This document shows positions 18,200 to 52,541 of a DNA stretch of 64,000 nt, piece by piece. The position numbers were made by a program, and so were the translations under genes. The notes beneath the pieces are model-generated. The model had not been told where the DNA came from and searched no databases. It saw nothing but the letters and a program-made list of their open reading frames with translations. The first letter of the stretch is position 1; each line of letters opens with the position of its first letter. This DNA comes from Shigella phage SSG23, in sequence record PQ351811; one strand, given 5' to 3'.

Positions 18200-18478
18200 A
18201 TGAGCAACCTGTCTTTCGCTAAAGTAGAAATTTCTAAAACTCGCGGTGGCATCAAAATCAAAACTTCCAATATCACTTCCTGCCGTGGTTGCGACCAGTT
18301 TGCGCGTGACCTTGCTGTGAAGCTGGGTATGAAAACCTTTACGGTGGAGAGCGGATCTAACTGGACCACTCTGATTGTTACTGCCGCTTGGATCAATGGC
18401 GAGTATGTAGAAAAAGCATACTTTGACATTTTCTATGACTATGAAGAAAAATGCTTTTACGCACTGCAAGACATGTAA
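18200..18478 (+). CDS. hypothetical early protein
   Basis: Track ORF after promoter and AAGGAGAATCAAAATG. Confidence 0.55.
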   Translation: MSNLSFAKVEISKTRGGIKIKTSNITSCRGCDQFARDLAVKLGMKTFTVESGSNWTTLIVTAAWINGEYVEKAYFDIFYDYEEKCFYALQDM

Positions 18479-19995: not shown

Positions 19996-20424
19996 ATGGT
20001 TTATCCAACTCCTAGTAAGATTTACATTGATGATACCCATTTTATGGTTGATATGATGGGTATAAAGTTTAGTGGTAATGTTAAAATTGTAGAGTGGGAA
20101 TTGCACGGTCAACCTGTCATCGATTATGACCATTACATTCCTTTTTTGGGTGATGACAATTTTGTCTCGTTTGACCATGAAGGTTACATGATCTTTGAAC
20201 AGTCTGACGTACCTTTGTATCTGGCAATGATGCAAATTCCTACGAAGGTTTCTGTTGTTGAGGGTGATTGCGATTGCTGCGGTTGGTATACTGTAACAGA
20301 TATTAAGTTGCCATCCGGTAAAGAACTCTACAACGAAGACCATTTTGGAAACTGTAACTTTCCGTGTGATTGGGATGAATTTTTCGAACTGGTAGAAACT
20401 GAAAGAACTTATTTAAGGAAGTGA
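19996..20424 (+). CDS. Cys-rich hypothetical protein
   Basis: Track ORF after GAGGATTATATAATG; GDCDCCGW and C..C motifs. Confidence 0.55.
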   Translation: MVYPTPSKIYIDDTHFMVDMMGIKFSGNVKIVEWELHGQPVIDYDHYIPFLGDDNFVSFDHEGYMIFEQSDVPLYLAMMQIPTKVSVVEGDCDCCGWYTVTDIKLPSGKELYNEDHFGNCNFPCDWDEFFELVETERTYLRK

Positions 20425-22030: not shown

Positions 22031-22059
22031 TTGACAATAAGAAATGGGAGTAGTAAAAT
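22031..22059 (+). promoter_or_regulatory. sigma70-like early promoter (PeSL-like cassette)
   Basis: TTGACA-17-TAAAAT with inverted repeat GGGAGTA/TACTCCC. Confidence 0.65.
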
Positions 22060-22090: not shown

Positions 22091-22351
22091 ATGCGTAAGA
22101 TGTTTAAAGCTGGTGTGGCCTATGTTTTTAAATCTGAGCAAGCACATAAAGACTTCTTAGATGATGAATACGAAGGGGTGAAAGATACCTACGAAGTCAT
22201 CAAGAATGGGTTTACTGTTCTTAAAGTGTCACCTGTTGGTTATGTAAGTGAAATAGCGGTTGATGGGAAAACATACACCGCTAAAGACTTTGACCCGCGT
22301 TGGGAATTTATGCTGCTTCCGTGTGAGCGCATTCTGTTCCGTGCTGTTTAA
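22091..22351 (+). CDS. paralog family B member (single N-module)
   Basis: Track ORF 22031..22351, ATG 22091 after AAGGAGAATCAACAATG; GFTVLKV..DGKTYTAKDF module. Confidence 0.55.
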   Translation: MRKMFKAGVAYVFKSEQAHKDFLDDEYEGVKDTYEVIKNGFTVLKVSPVGYVSEIAVDGKTYTAKDFDPRWEFMLLPCERILFRAV

Positions 22352-22377
22352 TTAGTGAAATGATAGAGGATTATATT

Positions 22378-22938
22378 ATGGTACAGAAAACGTATAAATT
22401 GTATCCGGCTAAGTCTTCAAATGATGCTGTTTTTGAACGAGGTCGTTATTACACTTTCCGTAGTGCAGAAACAGCCGCAGAATTTATCAAACGATGTCCG
22501 CAACATAATAAGTTCTTGTATGACGTGCTTTGTAACGGCTTTAAAGTTCTCACTGTTGATGCGATGGGGCGTGTGTATCTGGTAGAAACTCATGGGTATG
22601 AAGGTGCATCTGTTCTGATTGCTGCAAACGAGCGCAAATACTTTAAACGCATCACTAAAAAGCAGTTTGAAGAAATGAAACCAGTTAAGAAAGAAGAATC
22701 TCTGGAAGATCTGATTAACTTGTTTGGTAAAGTTCGCTCTATCTCCTTTGCGATTGAAGATGACATTACCGACAATAAAATCTTTGTCAAGAACGCGGAA
22801 GACCTGAAAGAGTTCCTTATTGAAAATAGATCTCGACTGGAAACCTTTCTTGAAAGTGAAATTATTCGACATGATACCTACGCTAAATTCAGCGCCGAGA
22901 AAGTGGAAGAACTGAAAGAGATTAAAAAGTCACTTTAA
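22378..22938 (+). CDS. paralog family B member
   Basis: ATG after GAGGATTATATTATG; GFKVLTVD..NERKYFKRI.. plus helical C-module LEDLINLFG...LKEFL. Confidence 0.55.
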   Translation: MVQKTYKLYPAKSSNDAVFERGRYYTFRSAETAAEFIKRCPQHNKFLYDVLCNGFKVLTVDAMGRVYLVETHGYEGASVLIAANERKYFKRITKKQFEEMKPVKKEESLEDLINLFGKVRSISFAIEDDITDNKIFVKNAEDLKEFLIENRSRLETFLESEIIRHDTYAKFSAEKVEELKEIKKSL

Positions 22939-22941
22939 CGC

Positions 22942-22970
22942 TTGACATGATGAAACGGGAGTAGTAAGAT
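22942..22970 (+). promoter_or_regulatory. sigma70-like early promoter (PeSL-like cassette)
   Basis: TTGACA-17-TAAGAT with GGGAGTA/TACTCCC inverted repeat. Confidence 0.65.
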
Positions 22971-23001
22971 ACTCCCATCTAAACAACGAGAGGATTATAT
23001 T

Positions 23002-24180
23002 ATGGCTAAATTCTTTGAAGGTCATTACTATGCATTCCGTGAAGGCGGTAAAGATGAGTTTCTAGACTTTTCTCGCTATTCAATTATTCTGACCGATGCT
23101 TCGCGCCGTGGTCATATTCGAGTTGCTGAAATCGTAGAAAAGGGCTTTAAAGTATTAGAAAAAGATGACCACGGTCATGTTATTACTATTGAAGCTGGAG
23201 ATGTAGTTTATTCCGCTGAGGATATCGTTTATTATTGGTCTACTATGATTATGCACAATGAGCGCAAATACTTTAAACGTATCTCAAAAGAGGCATACGA
23301 AGCGATGAACAAGAAAGAGGATGCAATGCCGACTTACTTTGAAAAAGGTAAATGTTATTCGTTTACCCCAGAAGGTTTGCAAGAATTTAAGCGATTCTGG
23401 GGAGAGCATGACCCAGAACACAAAGAAGCCATGAAACTTGCTGATTTTGTCGAATATGGCTTTTTGGTTGAAGAAGAATTGCACGGATCAGCTACCATGA
23501 TCACCGCGAAAGGTGAAACCGTTAAGGCAGATCGTTTTTGTGATCAATGGGCTTGTGTGTTTGACGGTGGCGAATTTGAATACTTCGCGGAAATCACCAA
23601 CCATCAATTTCATTCTATGCAAGCGGAAGGTCAGCGATTTAAAGTAGGCGAACGCTACAAGCCAAATCAGCATAATTTGCCTCATTGGTTTAACACTGAA
23701 ACCGTATCCAGCCATGTTATTGAAATTGTTCAAAAGCTGGAACATGGATTTAAGGTAACTAAAGTAGATCCTTTCGGAAGTGTTGACGCGGTTGAAGTTG
23801 ATGGTGTAGAATATACTCCCAAATCTTTCGGGCTTTGCTGGTATCATCTGATCAGCAATGATGAACGTTATAACTTTGTTGAACTGCCATCTGAACCGGA
23901 AGAAGCACTAGAGGATCATGATCATCTATCTGAACTGGTTAAGCTGTTTGGTGATCTGCCGGATGGTGTAGGGGTGGCGGTAATGGGTGAAGGTGCGGTT
24001 ATCCGAAACCTGAAAGACTTTAAAAAGTTCTTGATTGACATGCTGCCTAAACTTGATGATAATCTCGATACAGATATTCAGAATCGCAAAGAAATTGTTA
24101 AAGAGACTGAAAAAGAGATCGAAGCGATTCGAGCAATTCGCCAGAAGGTGAAAGCAGTAAAGAAAAAAGTTCGTGCTTGA
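23002..24180 (+). CDS. paralog family B member (multi-module, 392 aa)
   Basis: Repeated GFKV..D..G.V...V.G..Y modules, NERKYFKRI, C-terminal LSELVKLFG..LKDFKKFL helical module. Confidence 0.6.
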   Translation: MAKFFEGHYYAFREGGKDEFLDFSRYSIILTDASRRGHIRVAEIVEKGFKVLEKDDHGHVITIEAGDVVYSAEDIVYYWSTMIMHNERKYFKRISKEAYEAMNKKEDAMPTYFEKGKCYSFTPEGLQEFKRFWGEHDPEHKEAMKLADFVEYGFLVEEELHGSATMITAKGETVKADRFCDQWACVFDGGEFEYFAEITNHQFHSMQAEGQRFKVGERYKPNQHNLPHWFNTETVSSHVIEIVQKLEHGFKVTKVDPFGSVDAVEVDGVEYTPKSFGLCWYHLISNDERYNFVELPSEPEEALEDHDHLSELVKLFGDLPDGVGVAVMGEGAVIRNLKDFKKFLIDMLPKLDDNLDTDIQNRKEIVKETEKEIEAIRAIRQKVKAVKKKVRA

Positions 24181-24205
24181 CATGCGAAGGGAGTATGCTA
24201 TAATA
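24177..24205 (+). promoter_or_regulatory. sigma70-consensus early promoter
   Basis: TTGACA (overlapping upstream stop), spacer with GGGAGTAT/ATACTCCC repeat, TATAAT. Confidence 0.7.
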
Positions 24206-24234
24206 CTCCCACTTAACAACGAGAGGATTATATT

Positions 24235-24729
24235 ATGTGGGTACAAGATGTTTGGTATACTGTAACTAAAGAAAACCTTGACGCATTCAGCGACCAATCT
24301 TGCGCTAATAGTTCAATTGCTGGTATCCTTACTGATGTGTTTGGTGGTGTTGATAAAATTCGTTTTAAAGTTGTTGTTGGTTCGATGGGGGGTGTAAAAG
24401 ACCTATACACCGAAGATAAAGACCTTGATCTTGAACTTCGTCTTCGTATTGATAATGCAAGTCTAGGTTATTGGTTTGAAGATAACGAATATGAATACTT
24501 CACCCCAGCAATTAAAGTTTTTGCGACTAAACTGGAAGCTGTACTAAATATCCGACCAATTAATGTTGACGGTTATATTATCAAAAATATTCAGGATTGG
24601 GAGTTGTATCTAGATCAGATTATCCGAAATAGTAAGCAGGAAGCCGCTAATAAGAAGCGACAAGAGATTAAACAGCTTAAGGCTGAACTGGAAGCTAAAG
24701 AAAAAGAATTAGCAGAACTGGTAAAATAA
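24235..24729 (+). CDS. hypothetical protein, paralog-family-like
   Basis: ATG after GAGGATTATATTATG; WFEDNEYEYF motif; coiled-coil C-terminus. Confidence 0.55.
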   Translation: MWVQDVWYTVTKENLDAFSDQSCANSSIAGILTDVFGGVDKIRFKVVVGSMGGVKDLYTEDKDLDLELRLRIDNASLGYWFEDNEYEYFTPAIKVFATKLEAVLNIRPINVDGYIIKNIQDWELYLDQIIRNSKQEAANKKRQEIKQLKAELEAKEKELAELVK

Positions 24730-26641: not shown

Positions 26642-26674
26642 AGCCGATCCGAAAGGGTCGGCTTTTTCGTTTTG
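26642..26674 (+). terminator. intrinsic terminator
   Basis: AGCCGATCC-GAAA-GGGTCGGCT followed by TTTTTCGTTTT. Confidence 0.7.
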
Positions 26675-26679
26675 GGGTG

Positions 26680-26707
26680 TTGACAACATGATTAGATAAT
26701 GTATAAT
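26680..26707 (+). promoter_or_regulatory. sigma70-consensus early promoter
   Basis: TTGACA-16-TATAAT; leader CACATCGAAAACAACGAGAGGACAACATG. Confidence 0.7.
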
Positions 26708-26739
26708 GCTCACATCGAAAACAACGAGAGGACAACATG

Positions 26740-27276
26740 ATGATGTTTTGTGTACTGAGCAAAGAAGTTAAACTTCGTAAACTGGAAATTGGCGATGGTG
26801 TTGTTGTTAAAATGCACGCTAGCACATTGACTAGTTTTAATTTAAAGGAAAGTTTTTTTATTAGAGGAACGGTGGTTAATATCTGCTGGAGTAAAGGCGA
26901 AGGAATCCGTAGCTTTTGCGTAATTGACGATGATAATAACCTGTATGTGATTCGCTATCATAATAATTCTATATTGGTCTATACCGACAATTCACGAGAA
27001 TTGTATACTCTTGAATTTGTTAAGCGTACTGATTGCGATCGATTTGTTCGTGCTTATGAAGAAGATGGCTGTTTTGCGACTGAAACAGAAACACATGAAT
27101 ATGTTCCTATGGAAGTAGGAGCCGAAATTAAACACAAGATCACGGATCGTATTTTTAAGGTTGTGGCGGTTGCTCATACTCAATTTGTAGCGCAAGCGCC
27201 GGATGAAGAATTTATTATCTACAATATTGGTAATGCAAGTTCTCACTTTCATAATGTACAATATCGCGATCTTTGA
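26740..27276 (+). CDS. hypothetical protein
   Basis: Track ORF 26737..27276; GAGAGGA SD 7 nt upstream of second ATG. Confidence 0.55.
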   Translation: MMFCVLSKEVKLRKLEIGDGVVVKMHASTLTSFNLKESFFIRGTVVNICWSKGEGIRSFCVIDDDNNLYVIRYHNNSILVYTDNSRELYTLEFVKRTDCDRFVRAYEEDGCFATETETHEYVPMEVGAEIKHKITDRIFKVVAVAHTQFVAQAPDEEFIIYNIGNASSHFHNVQYRDL

Positions 27277-27293
27277 AATAATGTGAGGTGACT

Positions 27294-27839
27294 ATGAAAT
27301 CATTAAACCGTAAACGTAAAGCACAACGACACATGGAACACGCAAAATCAATTAATGTTGATATGACATTAGAACATATTGATGATGATTCATGTTATGA
27401 TGATGAACCAACAAATAAGATCCCTGTATGGATGGTTACGGTAAGAATTGACAATAAACAGATCGAAGAGACACACGATGCTTTAGCCTTGTTTCACGAA
27501 TGGCATCCGGTTAATATCGGGTGGGAGGAAAACAAAGCAAAAGGTCAATACTTCCTCACCTGTTCGTGTGGTGTAGCCGGATGCGCTGGGTATTGGGAAC
27601 CTGTTGTGATTCGGGTTAAAAAGGATACTGTACAATGGTCTGTGCGTAAAGAGCAGGGATACAGCAAAGGTGTGATCGGTACTGGCGAGAATGTGATTTA
27701 TCTTAAACGTAAAGATTACGAAGAGTGCCGGAAGTTTATTTTGAATATGCTGCGTTCTTATCCAGATGACAATTTCATGTTTGCCGGAGAGTACCTACCA
27801 GGCCGCCTGTGGTTGAAATCTCTCGAAAAATTTAAATAA
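27294..27839 (+). CDS. hypothetical protein
   Basis: Track ORF 27288 (GTG), ATG 27294 after GAGGTG SD; CSCGVAGCAGYW Cys cluster. Confidence 0.55.
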   Translation: MKSLNRKRKAQRHMEHAKSINVDMTLEHIDDDSCYDDEPTNKIPVWMVTVRIDNKQIEETHDALALFHEWHPVNIGWEENKAKGQYFLTCSCGVAGCAGYWEPVVIRVKKDTVQWSVRKEQGYSKGVIGTGENVIYLKRKDYEECRKFILNMLRSYPDDNFMFAGEYLPGRLWLKSLEKFK

Positions 27840-27843
27840 ATGC

Positions 27844-27872
27844 TTGACGGGGATCGCGAGATCCCCTATACT
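27844..27872 (+). promoter_or_regulatory. sigma70-like early promoter (PeSL-like cassette)
   Basis: TTGACG then palindromic spacer GGGGATCGCGAGATCCCC then TATACT; conserved leader. Confidence 0.65.
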
Positions 27873-27914
27873 ACACACATCAAGACGAGATACAACTTTA
27901 CAGGAGAATCAAAT

Positions 27915-28067
27915 ATGTGGACTTTACTGATTTGGGAAACTGAAAACGCACAAGTAGAAATCCGTGAATACGAATACCTAAGCCCAGCTTATCTATTGGC
28001 ATCTCGCGGCGGTTACTATAAAGCGCAGATTGTAAACGAGTTCGGGGTAATTGAATATGAGTTCTGA
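27915..28067 (+). CDS. small hypothetical early protein (50 aa)
   Basis: ATG after AGGAGAATCAAATATG; within track ORF 27840..28067. Confidence 0.45.
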   Translation: MWTLLIWETENAQVEIREYEYLSPAYLLASRGGYYKAQIVNEFGVIEYEF

Positions 28068-28560
28068 TACATACGGCAAACTACGCTATGCCGATATTAA
28101 AGATTGTGATATGGTTAATGGTGAGGGAGTGAGAGTCTCCCTTTACGTTACCGGATGTTCACACGCATGTGATGGTTGCTTTAATTCCAGTATACTCAAT
28201 CCTAAGAACGGGGAACCATTCACCGATGATACAATGGGATTGATTCTGGATCTGCTTAGACCTGATTTTATTCAGGGGCTAACATTCTTAGGTGGAGATC
28301 CACTGTATAAACGCAATTTAAAGGGTGTACAGCGGATCATCGATGAAGTAAAATCATGGATGCCAAATAAAGATATTTGGCTATGGTCCGGTTATACCCT
28401 TGACCAATTGAATGATGAGCAAAGAAAAATTGTAGAATCGGTTGACATGTTCATCGATGGGCGTTATATTAAAGATATGCCAACGAAGAAGCCGTGGCGG
28501 GGGTCTGACAATCAAGTACAATACAAGATTGTTAATAGTATTCCCGTGAAAATTATTTGA
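28057..28560 (+). CDS. nrdG: anaerobic ribonucleotide reductase activating protein (radical SAM)
   Basis: Cys cluster GCSHACDGCFN (CxxxCxxC-type); track ORF 28051 (TTG), ATG 28057. Confidence 0.88.
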   Translation: MSSDTYGKLRYADIKDCDMVNGEGVRVSLYVTGCSHACDGCFNSSILNPKNGEPFTDDTMGLILDLLRPDFIQGLTFLGGDPLYKRNLKGVQRIIDEVKSWMPNKDIWLWSGYTLDQLNDEQRKIVESVDMFIDGRYIKDMPTKKPWRGSDNQVQYKIVNSIPVKII

Positions 28561-28570
28561 GGTGATTATT

Positions 28571-29098
28571 ATGGAATGGGAAGTTGGTAAAACTTACAAG
28601 ATTGAATGCGAAGCGTCGAAAGCCGAACTGACTAAATTTTCGTCGTCTATTAACAGATGTATTGTTGACTTGTTGGCTGGTCGCCCGTTTAGGGTAGAAG
28701 ACCTTGACGATGATGGTGATGTTAGAGAAATTACTATTATTGGTAGTAATTTCGACTCTATGACGTTAAAAGAATCCCCTATTGGTTGTTCTGGTGTGTG
28801 GTTTTGGTCGGGTGAGCGTCGTTTCTTTACCGAAGTTACTATTGAACCTAAGATTCCAGAATCGGAAGAAAAAGAAGAAGACCTAACTTTAGAACGTCTG
28901 GGTCTGCTTATGGAAGCCTACGACATTCAGTTGATCGATAAGACAGGATTGCACAATAGCATTGCTAAAATCACTACCCTAGAAGGTATTAAGAGCGTAC
29001 TGGATGGTATGCCTAGCCGGATCGGTGCTATCCGCGAATACAAGCAAACGCGCGACCGTATGATCCAATTAGAATCACGTATCAAAAATGAGAGATGA
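28571..29098 (+). CDS. paralog family A member 1
   Basis: MEWEVGKTYK...RPFRV..WFWSGERRFFTEV module plus helical C-module; GAGGTG SD. Confidence 0.6.
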   Translation: MEWEVGKTYKIECEASKAELTKFSSSINRCIVDLLAGRPFRVEDLDDDGDVREITIIGSNFDSMTLKESPIGCSGVWFWSGERRFFTEVTIEPKIPESEEKEEDLTLERLGLLMEAYDIQLIDKTGLHNSIAKITTLEGIKSVLDGMPSRIGAIREYKQTRDRMIQLESRIKNER

Positions 29099-29102
29099 TA
29101 AT

Positions 29103-29588
29103 ATGAAATGGGAAGAAGGTAAGACCTATAAGTTGGGTGGAGAATACGAAAAGAGTATTTTGCGTGATTGTTGGCGTTACGAACGAAGACCTAATATTGA
29201 TGGTATGTTTACATATCTCGATAAACCATTTATTGTTGCTACGGTAGACCGTTGGGGTAATGTACGTTCAATCTATAATCACGAAGGGGATTATATTAGT
29301 TCTATCGATGTTGGTGATAATATATGGTTTTCCGATGGCGACCGAGCGTGCTTCAAAGAAGTTTTATTGCCTGGTCATGAGCATGATCTAATTGATCTTC
29401 TCAAATTGGCGATGGATAATTATAAAATTCGCTTTGAATGCAAATCACATGCGGCTATCGGTGCTAATGCATTGCGTCATATCTCCAGTTTTGAAGAGTT
29501 GAAAGATTTTCTTGACAAAATGCCGGAAAGAGTGCAAGCTATACAGGAAGCAGAGAAAGCATTAAACGAACTTGATAAAATCGGTTAA
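29103..29588 (+). CDS. paralog family A member 2
   Basis: MKWEEGKTYK...KPFIV..WFSDGDRACFKEV; C-module FLDKMPERVQAIQEAE. Confidence 0.6.
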   Translation: MKWEEGKTYKLGGEYEKSILRDCWRYERRPNIDGMFTYLDKPFIVATVDRWGNVRSIYNHEGDYISSIDVGDNIWFSDGDRACFKEVLLPGHEHDLIDLLKLAMDNYKIRFECKSHAAIGANALRHISSFEELKDFLDKMPERVQAIQEAEKALNELDKIG

Positions 29589-29600
29589 GGGGAATATATT

Positions 29601-30425
29601 ATGAAATGGGAAATTGGTAAAACTTACACTTGGAAAGATGAAAAAGCTAAAACTGAGTTTATTACTAACGGTGAAGGTGTTCTTTCTCCACTTAACAGCG
29701 ATATTAGTGCAGCTATTGGTGACAAGCCATTTACCATCATCGAGATCGAGGGTAATGGTTGGATTGATGTAATAGAACTCGATGGGGTTGAGCATACGGC
29801 GAAAACTGCTACAGGAAAAGACATTTGGACTGCAACATATTTCTTTAGTCCATTCGATAGAAAATTCTTTCGTGAAGTTGAAGAAGTTCCCCAGAAATGG
29901 GAGGTTGGTAAAACTTATACTTGGAAAGATGCGAATGCTATGACCGACTTCTGTCATTATGCTGAAAACGTATCTAATCTTAATTATGTTATTGCACGAG
30001 CAATAAATTATAGACCTTTTACTGTTAAAAATGTTCGTCCATGTGGGCAAATTGATGTAATTGAAATTGATGGTAAAGACCATACTCTAATGAGTGCAAC
30101 CGAAGATAGCGACCATAAAGGAACTAGCTGGTTTATTGATTCTGATAGAAAATTCTTTCAAGAAGTAGAAGAATTGGAAGTTATAACCACTGATTCTAAG
30201 ATCGTTGGGCAATTGAAGCGTCTGTTTAGTAGTCGTTATGGCCTAACAATGGTTAAATTTGGCGAAGCAAATGAAGGTAAAACCTTTGAACGTTTCGATG
30301 ATTTCATCACAGCACTTGACAAGATGGACGAAATCATGCAAGATCGACAGAAGATTAAAGACCTTCAAGAAGACATTAACCGTCGTGAAGTTGAATTTTT
30401 GATTGGTAAAGAGCGAGGATGGTAA
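29601..30425 (+). CDS. paralog family A member 3 (internally duplicated N-module)
   Basis: Two copies of WE.GKTYTWKD...RPFT...IDVIE.DG...FDRKFF.EVEE (residues 1-95 and 97-190) plus C-module. Confidence 0.65.
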   Translation: MKWEIGKTYTWKDEKAKTEFITNGEGVLSPLNSDISAAIGDKPFTIIEIEGNGWIDVIELDGVEHTAKTATGKDIWTATYFFSPFDRKFFREVEEVPQKWEVGKTYTWKDANAMTDFCHYAENVSNLNYVIARAINYRPFTVKNVRPCGQIDVIEIDGKDHTLMSATEDSDHKGTSWFIDSDRKFFQEVEELEVITTDSKIVGQLKRLFSSRYGLTMVKFGEANEGKTFERFDDFITALDKMDEIMQDRQKIKDLQEDINRREVEFLIGKERGW

Positions 30426-30426
30426 T

Positions 30427-30909
30427 ATGTTTGTTGCTGGCGTGACCTATCAGTGGAAAGATAAGAAAACGAGAGAAGATTTTGCAAACTTTAGCGTTGC
30501 AAATGATGCAATAGCAGAGTTTATCGGCGACCGTCCATTTAAAGTTATTGCATTTGATCACCATGCATCGGATGTGGATTATGTTTCTGTGATTGAAATT
30601 GATGGCAAGGTGTACACCTGCTGCAATGTTGATGATGTACGGGAATACGCGCACAACTGGTTTTTGCAATCAGAAGAACGTCATTTTAAAGTGGTATCGG
30701 CAGAACTGACCACTGATGCAATGTTGGAACAATTTTTTAACAACTACGAAGTTTCTGTACGTCGATATGGTGAAGAGGAAGTATTTAAAATTGATGACTA
30801 TAATCAGTTTAAACGAGTATTCGCCACTAAGATCCAACGTGATATTGAACGCGAGAAGCGCATCAAGGAACTGGAAGAAGAACTGGAAAGATTAAAGGCT
30901 GAGAAATGA
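30427..30909 (+). CDS. paralog family A member 4
   Basis: Track ORF 30403..30909, ATG 30427 after GAGCGAGGATGG; VTYQWKDKK...RPFKV..VIEIDG..WF; coiled-coil C-terminus. Confidence 0.55.
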   Translation: MFVAGVTYQWKDKKTREDFANFSVANDAIAEFIGDRPFKVIAFDHHASDVDYVSVIEIDGKVYTCCNVDDVREYAHNWFLQSEERHFKVVSAELTTDAMLEQFFNNYEVSVRRYGEEEVFKIDDYNQFKRVFATKIQRDIEREKRIKELEEELERLKAEK

Positions 30910-48016: not shown

Positions 48017-48652
48017 ATGATCGCTAATGCTTTACCGCCAAAATGGATCGTAAGTCGTTTTTATACTCTCAAGGAAGGTAACGCACCTGATGGTCGTCCG
48101 ATCCGAGATCTGTTTCTGGAGATGACTACAGCCGAAGCACAGTTTTATAATGATCTGACAGACGATAAGCCATTTCTCGTAAATTCGGTGGACCTTGATG
48201 GTAATGTTACGTCAATTATCGCACATGGTGGGGAAGTGAAAAATATTACTTCCTTGCGTGATCACGGTTGGGAAATTGCTTGTGTATTTCCTGCGGATGT
48301 ACGCGGATTCTTTGATGAGGTATCTGATATTAAAGTAAATGCACTGGAACCATATGACGAGAACCCACCACTGAAAGAAGAAAAAGAGTTGACACCGGAA
48401 GATGTAGGCAGTATACTACAACCCGACCTGTTTAAAAAGATTAGCGGTTTATGGACTATTACCCTGTATCCAACCGCATTAGGTTTAGAATTGGGTATGC
48501 CAACTTATTCTGATATTGATAATTGGACTAAGCACATTGATAAAGATGTTGAAAAACAGCGAAACAATGCTAAACTACAGTTGAAAGAGAAACGCAAAGA
48601 TCTTGAACGACAACTGAAAGAAACAAAACATTTGCTTTCTACGTTCGCTTGA
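48017..48652 (+). CDS. hypothetical protein with paralog-family-A-like module
   Basis: KPFLVNSVDLDGNV...GWEIACVFPADVRGFFDEV resembles modules at 28571-30909; coiled-coil C-terminus. Confidence 0.55.
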   Translation: MIANALPPKWIVSRFYTLKEGNAPDGRPIRDLFLEMTTAEAQFYNDLTDDKPFLVNSVDLDGNVTSIIAHGGEVKNITSLRDHGWEIACVFPADVRGFFDEVSDIKVNALEPYDENPPLKEEKELTPEDVGSILQPDLFKKISGLWTITLYPTALGLELGMPTYSDIDNWTKHIDKDVEKQRNNAKLQLKEKRKDLERQLKETKHLLSTFA

Positions 48653-51785: not shown

Positions 51786-52541
51786 ATGAAACTGTTTGCT
51801 TTTAAATCTAACGAAGAATTGGCGCTGGTTGTTTTCCGTTTGAACTCTATCATGGCTGGCGCTTCTCGTCGTAACAAAGACTTCTCTATGAGCTTAGTCA
51901 CTGTGCGTAACATCTATCGCCAGACTCATTGCGCATATTCAGGTGAGGCGTTCGGTGAAGGTGATGATGGACTCTCCTTAGAGCGCATTGATTGCAATCT
52001 GGGCTATGTTGATGGCAATGTGATTCCGGTTAAACTGAAATACAATTCTTTCCGTGGTAATCACACTATCGAATCTCTTAAAGAGATCCAGGAACTAGGA
52101 ACTAACGGTAAACTTTCTGATGATGAGATCGCCCTACGTGCAAAGTACATCGAGTGGATCGAACTTAACGAGAATCGCATCAAGAATCAGGAAATGGCGA
52201 TTGAAGAAAAGAAATTAGCGGTAGAACGCCACAAAAAGCACAATGAACCGGAGAAAGCAGAGGCAGCAGAGAAAGCAATTAAAAACACTCTCTTCCGTAT
52301 GGAAGAACGTTATCAGAAAATTGCAGATCTCAAGCAAGCCCTTAGCGAAATCAACAAGAAAGAGGAAAAACTTAAGGCTATTGCAAATAATACCGAAATC
52401 GTGCTAAAATATACCAGCGTTTTGATTGAATCTCTTTCTAAGTATGAGAACTTAACGCCAGCACAAAAAGAACGCGTGAAATACGGGCTTCCGATTGATG
52501 CGTCGTGGATTGAATTGATGAAAGCGAAGGTAGGTTTATAA
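51786..52541 (+). CDS. hypothetical protein with degenerate HNH-like motif and coiled-coil tail
   Basis: HCAYSGEAF...LERIDCNLGYVDGNVIPV..N resembles HNH_3-type motif lacking some catalytic residues. Confidence 0.55.
   Translation: MKLFAFKSNEELALVVFRLNSIMAGASRRNKDFSMSLVTVRNIYRQTHCAYSGEAFGEGDDGLSLERIDCNLGYVDGNVIPVKLKYNSFRGNHTIESLKEIQELGTNGKLSDDEIALRAKYIEWIELNENRIKNQEMAIEEKKLAVERHKKHNEPEKAEAAEKAIKNTLFRMEERYQKIADLKQALSEINKKEEKLKAIANNTEIVLKYTSVLIESLSKYENLTPAQKERVKYGLPIDASWIELMKAKVGL

Follow-up and report, generated by a model that had tools for sequence, protein, structure and literature searches.

In the 64,000-nucleotide stretch of Shigella phage SSG23 analyzed here (sequence record PQ351811; hereafter the window, to whose positions all coordinates refer), four adjacent genes between nrdG and nrdH, which we term A to D, form a tandem array of paralogs sharing an N-terminal module of about 90 residues. 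Our comparisons indicate that these genes very probably belong to the same family as the T4 proteins GoF (ComC-alpha) and Frd.2. We also recovered a second array of four genes with six modules (U1 to U4, 22091-24729) between gene 49 and nrdD, as well as a distant member (E) downstream, bringing the family to nine genes and 12 modules arranged as two tandem arrays and one copy after gene 41. The arrays are a Krischvirus-specific expansion of the GoF/Frd.2 family of non-structural phage proteins. Across phages that are otherwise 93-100% identical, the N-terminal modules are polymorphic and the C-terminal domain is conserved, barely varying in genes A to C. The genes are thus new members, with a multi-module architecture, of a recently named and functionally unsolved family; the new element is the domain-restricted polymorphism, which finds no mention in the one paper that we found on the family (PMC12152347).

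Relationship of the arrays to T4 GoF and Frd.2

The paralogy of the array genes is apparent from both pairwise and profile comparisons. In BLASTP comparisons genes A to E align with one another at 25-40% identity (27-55 bits) over 85-170 residues. When hidden Markov models (HMMs) were searched against all 644 six-frame open reading frames (ORFs) of the window, those constructed from the other array modules in a leave-one-out fashion retrieved each array module with expectation values (E) between 1e-7 and 4e-16 (3.7e-16 for A, 1.3e-7 for B and 2.7e-12 for D), and two domains were detected in gene C. These scores are well past chance, and the tandem family is therefore real. They bear out a preliminary description of this DNA, which had proposed a tandem paralog family with a module of about 90 residues at the N-terminus of four adjacent genes and two copies of it in the third (29601-30425); the ORFs lie exactly where it had placed them. 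The further related module that it had suspected at 48017-48652, our gene E, is retrieved by a profile of the five array modules at E 7.5e-7. While the position and limits given for the array were thus right, the family had been under-counted, since the second array upstream of nrdD was missed: the same five-module profile recovers U1 (E 2.9e-8), U2 (2.9e-5), U3 (7e-9, with three domains) and, most weakly, U4 (0.025). The alignment displays the consensus W-E-x-G-K-T-Y ... P-F-x-V ... G ... W-F ... (D/E)-R-x-F-F-x-E-V. Profile alignment of the modules is significant and the family has no match to any structural protein.

Several other candidates were set aside. The C-terminal HMM from genes A, B and C matched the ORF 51786-52541 (E 3e-4), which we judged to be a compositional match because this 251-residue ORF comprises an HNH-like N-terminus followed by a long Lys/Glu-rich helical tail. 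Two weak HMM candidates, 19996-20424 and 18200-18478 (E about 0.01), have no PHROG or Pfam support and were not counted; likewise uncounted are two ORFs at the Frd.2 position of Shigella phage SFHK24, for which no PHROG or Pfam link was found. A family-wide HMM found no additional members in the remaining 105 kilobases (kb) of the SFHK24 genome, and therefore all nine genes and 12 modules of that genome fall within the window.

The GoF family was first described in 2025, when GoF was grouped with Frd.2 and MotB.1 by PSI-BLAST and AlphaFold3 as a family with an 'LSm-like fold' (PMC12152347). Scans of all nine window proteins against Pfam and NCBIfam gave no meaningful match, and the Pfam FRD2 model (PF03197), which scores T4 Frd.2 itself at 133 bits, reported none of the nine. 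The connection emerges from the PHROG profiles. Genes A to D belong to phrog_5347, annotated as function unknown (E 5e-66 for gene A), and also match phrog_622, phrog_3710, phrog_5804 and three PHROGs labelled 'goF mRNA metabolism modulator'. Of these, phrog_622 contains both GoF and Frd.2 (taken from NC_000866); it is matched by gene A at E 1.2e-10 and also by U1, U2 and U3. One of the three 'goF mRNA metabolism modulator' profiles, phrog_8944, has U2 (E 9e-97) and U3 (E 1e-209) as members, and U1 matches phrog_5347, phrog_622 and phrog_8944. The remaining two genes score more weakly: gene E matches phrog_5347 at E 0.0012, and U4 matches phrog_3710 at E 7e-4, a profile that is likewise matched by A, C, D and T4 GoF. 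The relationship is reciprocal, with A and C matching phrog_622 and T4 GoF matching phrog_5347 over its residues 4-137, i.e., across both domains; moreover, the window-module HMM aligns with residues 4-89 of T4 GoF at 35 bits. RefSeq labels the orthologs of U2 and U3 in phage ECD7 'goF mRNA metabolism modulator; Frd.2'. The preliminary description, which saw no recognizable function in the family, therefore needs correction on this point: the N-terminal module is homologous to T4 GoF/ComC-alpha and Frd.2. Genes A to D carry the label 'hypothetical protein' in every record that we examined, including RefSeq ECD7, and can now be annotated as GoF-like.

The resemblance to GoF (141 residues) extends over the homologous N-terminal barrel of about 90 residues with its common motifs F/W-E-V-x-K-x-Y, P-F-K-(I/V), W and (E/D)-x-x-F-F-x-E-V, and over the same overall layout of a barrel followed by an acidic linker and a small C-terminal domain; both are non-structural proteins. 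On the other hand, GoF is only about 20-25% identical to the window modules, contains a single module, lacks the long terminal helix in its short beta-alpha C-terminal domain, and is encoded by a single-copy gene beside cef and gene 39 in 734 T4-like genomes (by tblastn), as opposed to the nine genes of the window with their arrays around nrdD/nrdG. Frd.2 shares phrog_622 with GoF, A to D and U1 to U3, but the module HMM scores it at only 8.8 bits. MotB.1 differs in belonging to the unrelated PHROG 2333, and no sequence search performed here links it to the family.

A HMMER search with the 12-module profile against 1.84 billion representative proteins returned only 76 matches, among them a GoF ortholog (P0128). 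Most are proteins of 120-210 residues with an N-terminal module; some have two modules (235-274 residues) or three (354 and 392 residues). The genuine matches are short proteins encoded on contigs of about 165-178 kb or by named T4-like phages of Pectobacterium, Morganella and Serratia. Five long matches (P0081, P0090, P0105, P0125 and P0127) were considered as potential cellular relatives and rejected as artefacts of summed repeat scores because they are Big_2 (Ig), FG-GAP and cadherin repeat proteins. Among the genuine profile matches and the named structure matches, one of the latter from phAPEC8 excepted, the module family is restricted to the T4-like phages (Straboviridae).

Gene layout and predicted structure of the modules

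Over the 3.2 kb surrounding the first array, the window matches Shigella phage SFHK24 at 100% identity and 57 other records at 93-99.8%; the 58 matching records all belong to the RB49-like, T4-type genus Krischvirus, as does the window itself. On the + strand, nrdC and gene 49 are followed by four unnamed genes and nrdD, then by three unnamed genes and nrdG, and then by another four unnamed genes ahead of nrdH, 55.2, gene 55 and further genes, such that the two arrays bracket the anaerobic ribonucleotide reductase genes nrdD-nrdG. All family members lie on this strand. Gene A (28571-29098, 175 residues) has an N module at 28571-28849, followed by an acidic linker and a helical C-terminal domain; gene B (29103-29588, 161 residues) has its N module at 29103-29372 and a C-terminal domain at about 29385-29585. 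In gene C (29601-30425, 274 residues) two tandem modules, C1 (29601-29888) and C2 (29889-30182), precede the C-terminal domain. Gene D (30427-30909, 160 residues), which overlaps the start of nrdH, has an N module at 30427-30705 and a Lys/Glu-rich C-terminal helix. In the second array, U1 (22091-22351) consists of one N module without a C-terminal domain; U2 (22360-22938) has an N module at 22426-22689 and then a C-terminal domain; U3 (23002-24180) has three tandem N modules (23002-23295, 23332-23607 and 23629-23901) followed by a C-terminal domain; and U4 (24235-24729) combines the most diverged N module with a C-terminal helix, possibly a coiled coil. Gene E (48017-48652, 211 residues) is located directly 3' of the homolog of the gene 41 helicase.

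Each protein thus has one to three barrels. In all but U1 these lead, through a short acidic linker, into a small C-terminal domain whose end is formed by a long charged helix. The preliminary description had assigned a helical C-terminal module to three of the array genes; the module does exist, but all four have one. Gene D aligns over its full length with phrog_5347, to which A, B and C also align; the C-terminal HMM from A, B and C scores it at only E 0.73, its motif being more diverged.

An AlphaFold2 model of a single module, using the 12 paralogs as the alignment, was obtained with a predicted local distance difference test score (pLDDT) of 88.6 and a predicted template modeling score (pTM) of 0.81, and displays the topology b1-a1-a2-b2-b3-b4-(short helices)-b5. 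The model of gene C (mean pLDDT 75) comprises two barrels, a poorly defined middle whose linker (residues 191-196) is of low confidence, and a helical C-terminal domain with a long terminal helix at residues 232-271. This predicted arrangement, namely a bent five-stranded antiparallel N domain, a flexible linker and a separate C-terminal domain, is the layout of the GoF/Frd.2 family. All modules other than the basic U2 (11 of 12) have a net acidic charge of -1 to -10. From these models we securely predict an acidic, SH3-like barrel of five strands for the module, strand 1 being followed by an insertion of two helices.

The best solved structural neighbors are FeoA and the SH3-like domain of the DtxR family, which likewise seem to have a small barrel of five strands and a helical insertion behind strand 1. 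They are followed by the Mib repeat of Mind-bomb and the SH3-like domains of IdeR, ScaR and DtxR, and further by PcrA/UvrD and other Tudor domains, EF-P, CarD and KOW domains. This list independently matches the one published for GoF. No Hfq or Sm chain was found among the top 60 neighbors, which supports a small SH3-like barrel over an LSm fold. The bent five-stranded antiparallel sheet is indeed reminiscent of Hfq and the Sm/LSm proteins, from which the published name of the GoF family derives; however, the Sm fold opens with an α-helix, after which come five strongly bent strands bearing the Sm1/Sm2 motifs, whereas the module model opens with strand 1 and places its two helices between strands 1 and 2. 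A Foldseek search of BFVD recovered 75 matches at E<=1e-3, with several phages contributing more than one, among them Pectobacterium phage PM2 and Aeromonas phage phiAS5, which may hence carry arrays as well. The named targets are all proteins of T4-like phages except for one from phAPEC8, and many targets are without a name; the ECD7 ortholog of gene E, listed as 'Dc2', is found at rank 26.

Polymorphism confined to the N-terminal modules

All four genes of the first array are retained in each of the 58 sequenced Krischvirus genomes, across which we surveyed identity relative to the window copy. For a finer comparison the window was set against phages ECD7, E26, FL04 and JK32 at the codon level. 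The flanking nrdG and nrdH genes are at least 98% identical in amino acid sequence, with a synonymous divergence (dS) of 0.04-0.1. In striking distinction, the N module of A in FL04 is 48% identical, that of B in JK32 47%, that of D in JK32 58%, and C2 is 39% identical in FL04 and 44% in JK32; the dS of all these swapped modules lies in the range 1.2-1.9. The N module of D in FL04 is intermediate, with 76% identity and a dS of only 0.41. The C-terminal domains of the very same genes are 94-100% identical (87% for D in JK32), with a dS of 0.1-0.3 (0.6-0.7 for D). The C-terminal exceptions are found in ECD7, where the domains of A and U2 are 75% and 60% identical, respectively.

The survey shows that such alleles are widespread. 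The N module of B falls below 60% identity in 30 of the 58 genomes, a split of 28 versus 30, and that of D does so in 37 of 58; C2 falls below 60% in five records and the N module of A below 80% in nine. The C-terminal domain of B is at least 99% identical in 55 genomes and at least 95% identical in all 58, and that of D is 80-100% identical in all 58.

Alleles of the same slot are 43-78% identical, as against 25-40% for modules of different slots, and slot identity is kept in all five genomes compared. We considered gene conversion between slots as the origin of the divergent alleles but rejected it because the alleles are always closest to the same slot of other phages. As the dS of the N modules is saturated, the alleles must be old. 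Ratios of nonsynonymous to synonymous divergence (dN/dS) over whole genes are 0.1-0.5, pointing to purifying selection that is more relaxed than on nrdD and nrdG (0.02-0.09). Hence, what we observe is an old and maintained slot-specific allelic diversity moved around by recombination with breakpoints near the domain borders, rather than recent fast evolution. The initial suggestion of duplication followed by rapid diversification should be recast: the paralogs are old, their slots stable and the selection purifying overall.

Modules are also gained and lost. Across the orthologs of gene C, C1 and the C-terminal domain are conserved, and C2 occurs in two very different forms or is absent, the proteins lacking it being 174-185 residues in length (178 in phage E26). 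In one such protein (P0058, equal in length to that of E26) the junction falls inside a 30-nucleotide repeat on the + strand, a module-end DNA island (GATAGAAAATTCTTTC.AGAAGT.GAAGAA) at 29856-29885 that recurs at 30144-30173 with 90% identity. A metagenomic protein (P0069) joins the N-terminal half of gene A to an alternative C2 tail and the C-terminal domain of gene C. Together, the C2 loss and the chimera point to recombination between paralogous modules. A repeat search further identified DNA islands at the module starts (28567-28600, 29099-29132, 29597-29630 and 29888-29921); at both ends of the modules, these short islands show higher conservation than the sequence in between.

Two neighboring ORFs also vary between the compared phages. 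An unrelated 183-residue ORF at 27288-27839 (phrog_8242, function unknown) is 47-49% identical in ECD7, E26, FL04 and JK32, with neighbors that are 96-99% identical, and is another allele-swapped gene of the region. The 179-residue ORF at 26737-27276 (phrog_14838, function unknown) is 59% identical in JK32 and 96-97% in the other compared phages; two stretches resembling the start of a small barrel can be seen in it by eye (LEIGDGVVVK, MEVGAEIKHK), and the family HMM scores the ORF at only E about 1.

Possible functions of the expanded family

What is published on the family offers one lead to a biochemical role. In T4, substitutions in goF that suppress rho mutants are D25Y and G84R. GoF(D25Y) stabilizes a reporter RNA with the gene 41 5'UR, which neither wild-type GoF nor MotB.1 does; early in infection GoF reaches a high abundance of roughly 20,000 copies per cell; GoF and MotB.1 migrate partly as dimers; AlphaFold3 multimer models of GoF are not confident; and all three T4 members are dispensable in the laboratory (PMC12152347). 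That paper makes no mention of RB49, Krischvirus, tandem arrays or paralog expansion, and a search of the literature turned up no other source that gives the family a function. An RNA-related activity seems the likeliest because the D25Y mutant of the homolog GoF stabilizes gene 41 mRNA post-transcriptionally, and an effect on mRNA fate is favored as the sole phenotype attached to the family.

Accepting this lead, the proteins might act by stoichiometric binding to RNA or to the host RNA-handling machinery (Rho, RNases or RNA polymerase), whereby phage transcripts would be shielded or adjusted in the early phase of infection. The barrel would be the target-binding and specificity-determining part, a reading prompted by its variation from one phage strain to another; the constant part would be the C-terminal domain, serving self-association or the binding of a common partner. 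We infer the self-association through the terminal helix, the nature of the target and the effect on mRNA. By itself, we regard this RNA-metabolism mechanism as a tentative proposal; the overall explanation that couples it with the family identity strikes us as about evenly balanced, a judgment that is a compromise between the two parts.

We mapped the two suppressor positions onto the window modules using three MAFFT modes and hmmalign. In the column of D25, where GoF has an acidic residue, C2 has Tyr, and A, D, U3a and U3b have Phe, giving an aromatic residue in five of the 12 modules. In the column of G84, Lys or Arg is found in C1, C2, A, D, U2 and U3a (six of 12), and the column preceding it has Arg in nine of 12. 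The two features coincide in C2, A, D and U3a, i.e., in four of the 12 window modules versus four of 71 other family domains. These four may accordingly be the natural modules most likely to act like the gain-of-function mutant of GoF, which we offer as a lead and not as proof. Separately, it may be a coincidence that gene E adjoins the homolog of gene 41, the gene whose mRNA changes in level under T4 GoF(D25Y).

The arrays may be transcribed early, judging from strong promoter-like sequences. A sigma-70-type site, TTGACA-16-TATAAT with 12 of 12 matches, is present on the + strand at 24177-24204, about 30 nucleotides upstream of U4, and a consensus scan identified similar perfect or near-perfect sites at 22031-22059 before U1, 22942-22970 before U3 and 28442-28470 before A. 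Between the arrays, a strong terminator-like hairpin (26642-26707; 9 bp stem with 6 GC pairs and a T-run) is situated just after nrdD, and a perfect TTGACA-16-TATAAT site is found 17 nucleotides beyond it, ahead of the ORF 26737-27276. A small ORF overlapping the start of nrdG (27840-28067) matches Pfam DUF7170 at E 2e-17.

Several points weigh against this explanation. The role in RNA metabolism is drawn from a single gain-of-function mutant; the net acidity of nearly all modules fits general RNA binding poorly; and the closest solved folds (FeoA, the DtxR SH3 domain, Tudor and Mib) serve mostly in contacts between proteins. Residues at positions 25 and 84 vary throughout the family, so that the residue match is only suggestive; so too are the promoter-like sites, as their total in the window scan is no higher than in shuffled controls. 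The structure models derive from shallow alignments of 12 and 22 sequences.

The same acidity and fold neighbors, the latter including the RNA-polymerase-binding Tudor domains of PcrA/UvrD and CarD, together with the polymorphism, better fit an alternative in which the barrels bind a host protein, for example Rho, RNA polymerase, an RNase, or a sensor or effector of a defense system. The proteins would then act as anti-defense or takeover adaptors with indirect effects on RNA; host diversity would maintain the barrel alleles, and the C-terminal domain would oligomerize or recruit a common partner. Old N-module alleles at intermediate frequency, set beside near-invariant C-terminal domains in A to C and conserved flanks, form a pattern typical of loci in an arms race, and the gain, loss and chimerism of modules are in keeping with it, as are the abundance of GoF (roughly 20,000 copies per cell) and its dispensability in laboratory hosts (PMC12152347). 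However, no described anti-defense protein was matched in NCBIfam or Pfam (PADLOC was not among the libraries searched), pull-downs of GoF from uninfected E. coli gave essentially only GoF (PMC12152347), and the literature searched reports no phenotype on defense-carrying hosts. We hold this counter-defense or takeover role, toward which the preliminary description had also leaned, to be a plausible possibility that comes close behind an effect on mRNA fate; the two are not mutually exclusive.

That the expansion is a dispensable and nearly neutral set of ORFans, thrown up without specific function by frequent duplication and recombination in a plastic region, is very unlikely. The non-essentiality of the T4 members in the laboratory (PMC12152347), the deletion and chimeric variants and the mosaic nature of the region, in which the unrelated 27288-27839 also has alleles about 47% identical, could be read in this way. 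Against this, the array genes are kept in 58 of 58 genomes with dN/dS well below 1, the C-terminal domain of B nowhere falls below 95% identity, the core motif is kept over the 12 modules and between genera, and in a T4 CRISPRi-ART screen frd.2 alone among the genes of unknown function came out as a fitness gene (PMC11879866). The structural neighbors FeoA and DtxR might suggest iron or metal handling or metal-dependent DNA-binding regulation, but this is scarcely credible given the lack of any Pfam FeoA or DtxR match at E<=1, of a metal-ligand motif (GoF likewise lacks the histidines; PMC12152347), of a helix-turn-helix domain and of feoB in the phage.

Ever since the work on rho (nusD) suppressors, GoF has posed a genetic puzzle. 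Krischvirus offers a natural experiment on it, with 12 copies of the module, some of them fused in tandem, and natural allele swaps confined to the barrel. Several of these copies already hold the residues that turn T4 GoF into an RNA stabilizer, and the domain-restricted variation predicts that it is the barrel that sets specificity. More speculatively, and in our view doubtfully, the barrels could be a polymorphic specificity repertoire on which variable host targets, for instance defense sensors or RNA-degrading and termination factors, impose balancing or diversifying selection. If so, the 12-module set would represent a combinatorial counter-defense or host-range toolkit mounted on constant C-terminal scaffolds, and the rho-suppressor mutations of T4 GoF would recreate a binding surface that is native to several Krischvirus modules.

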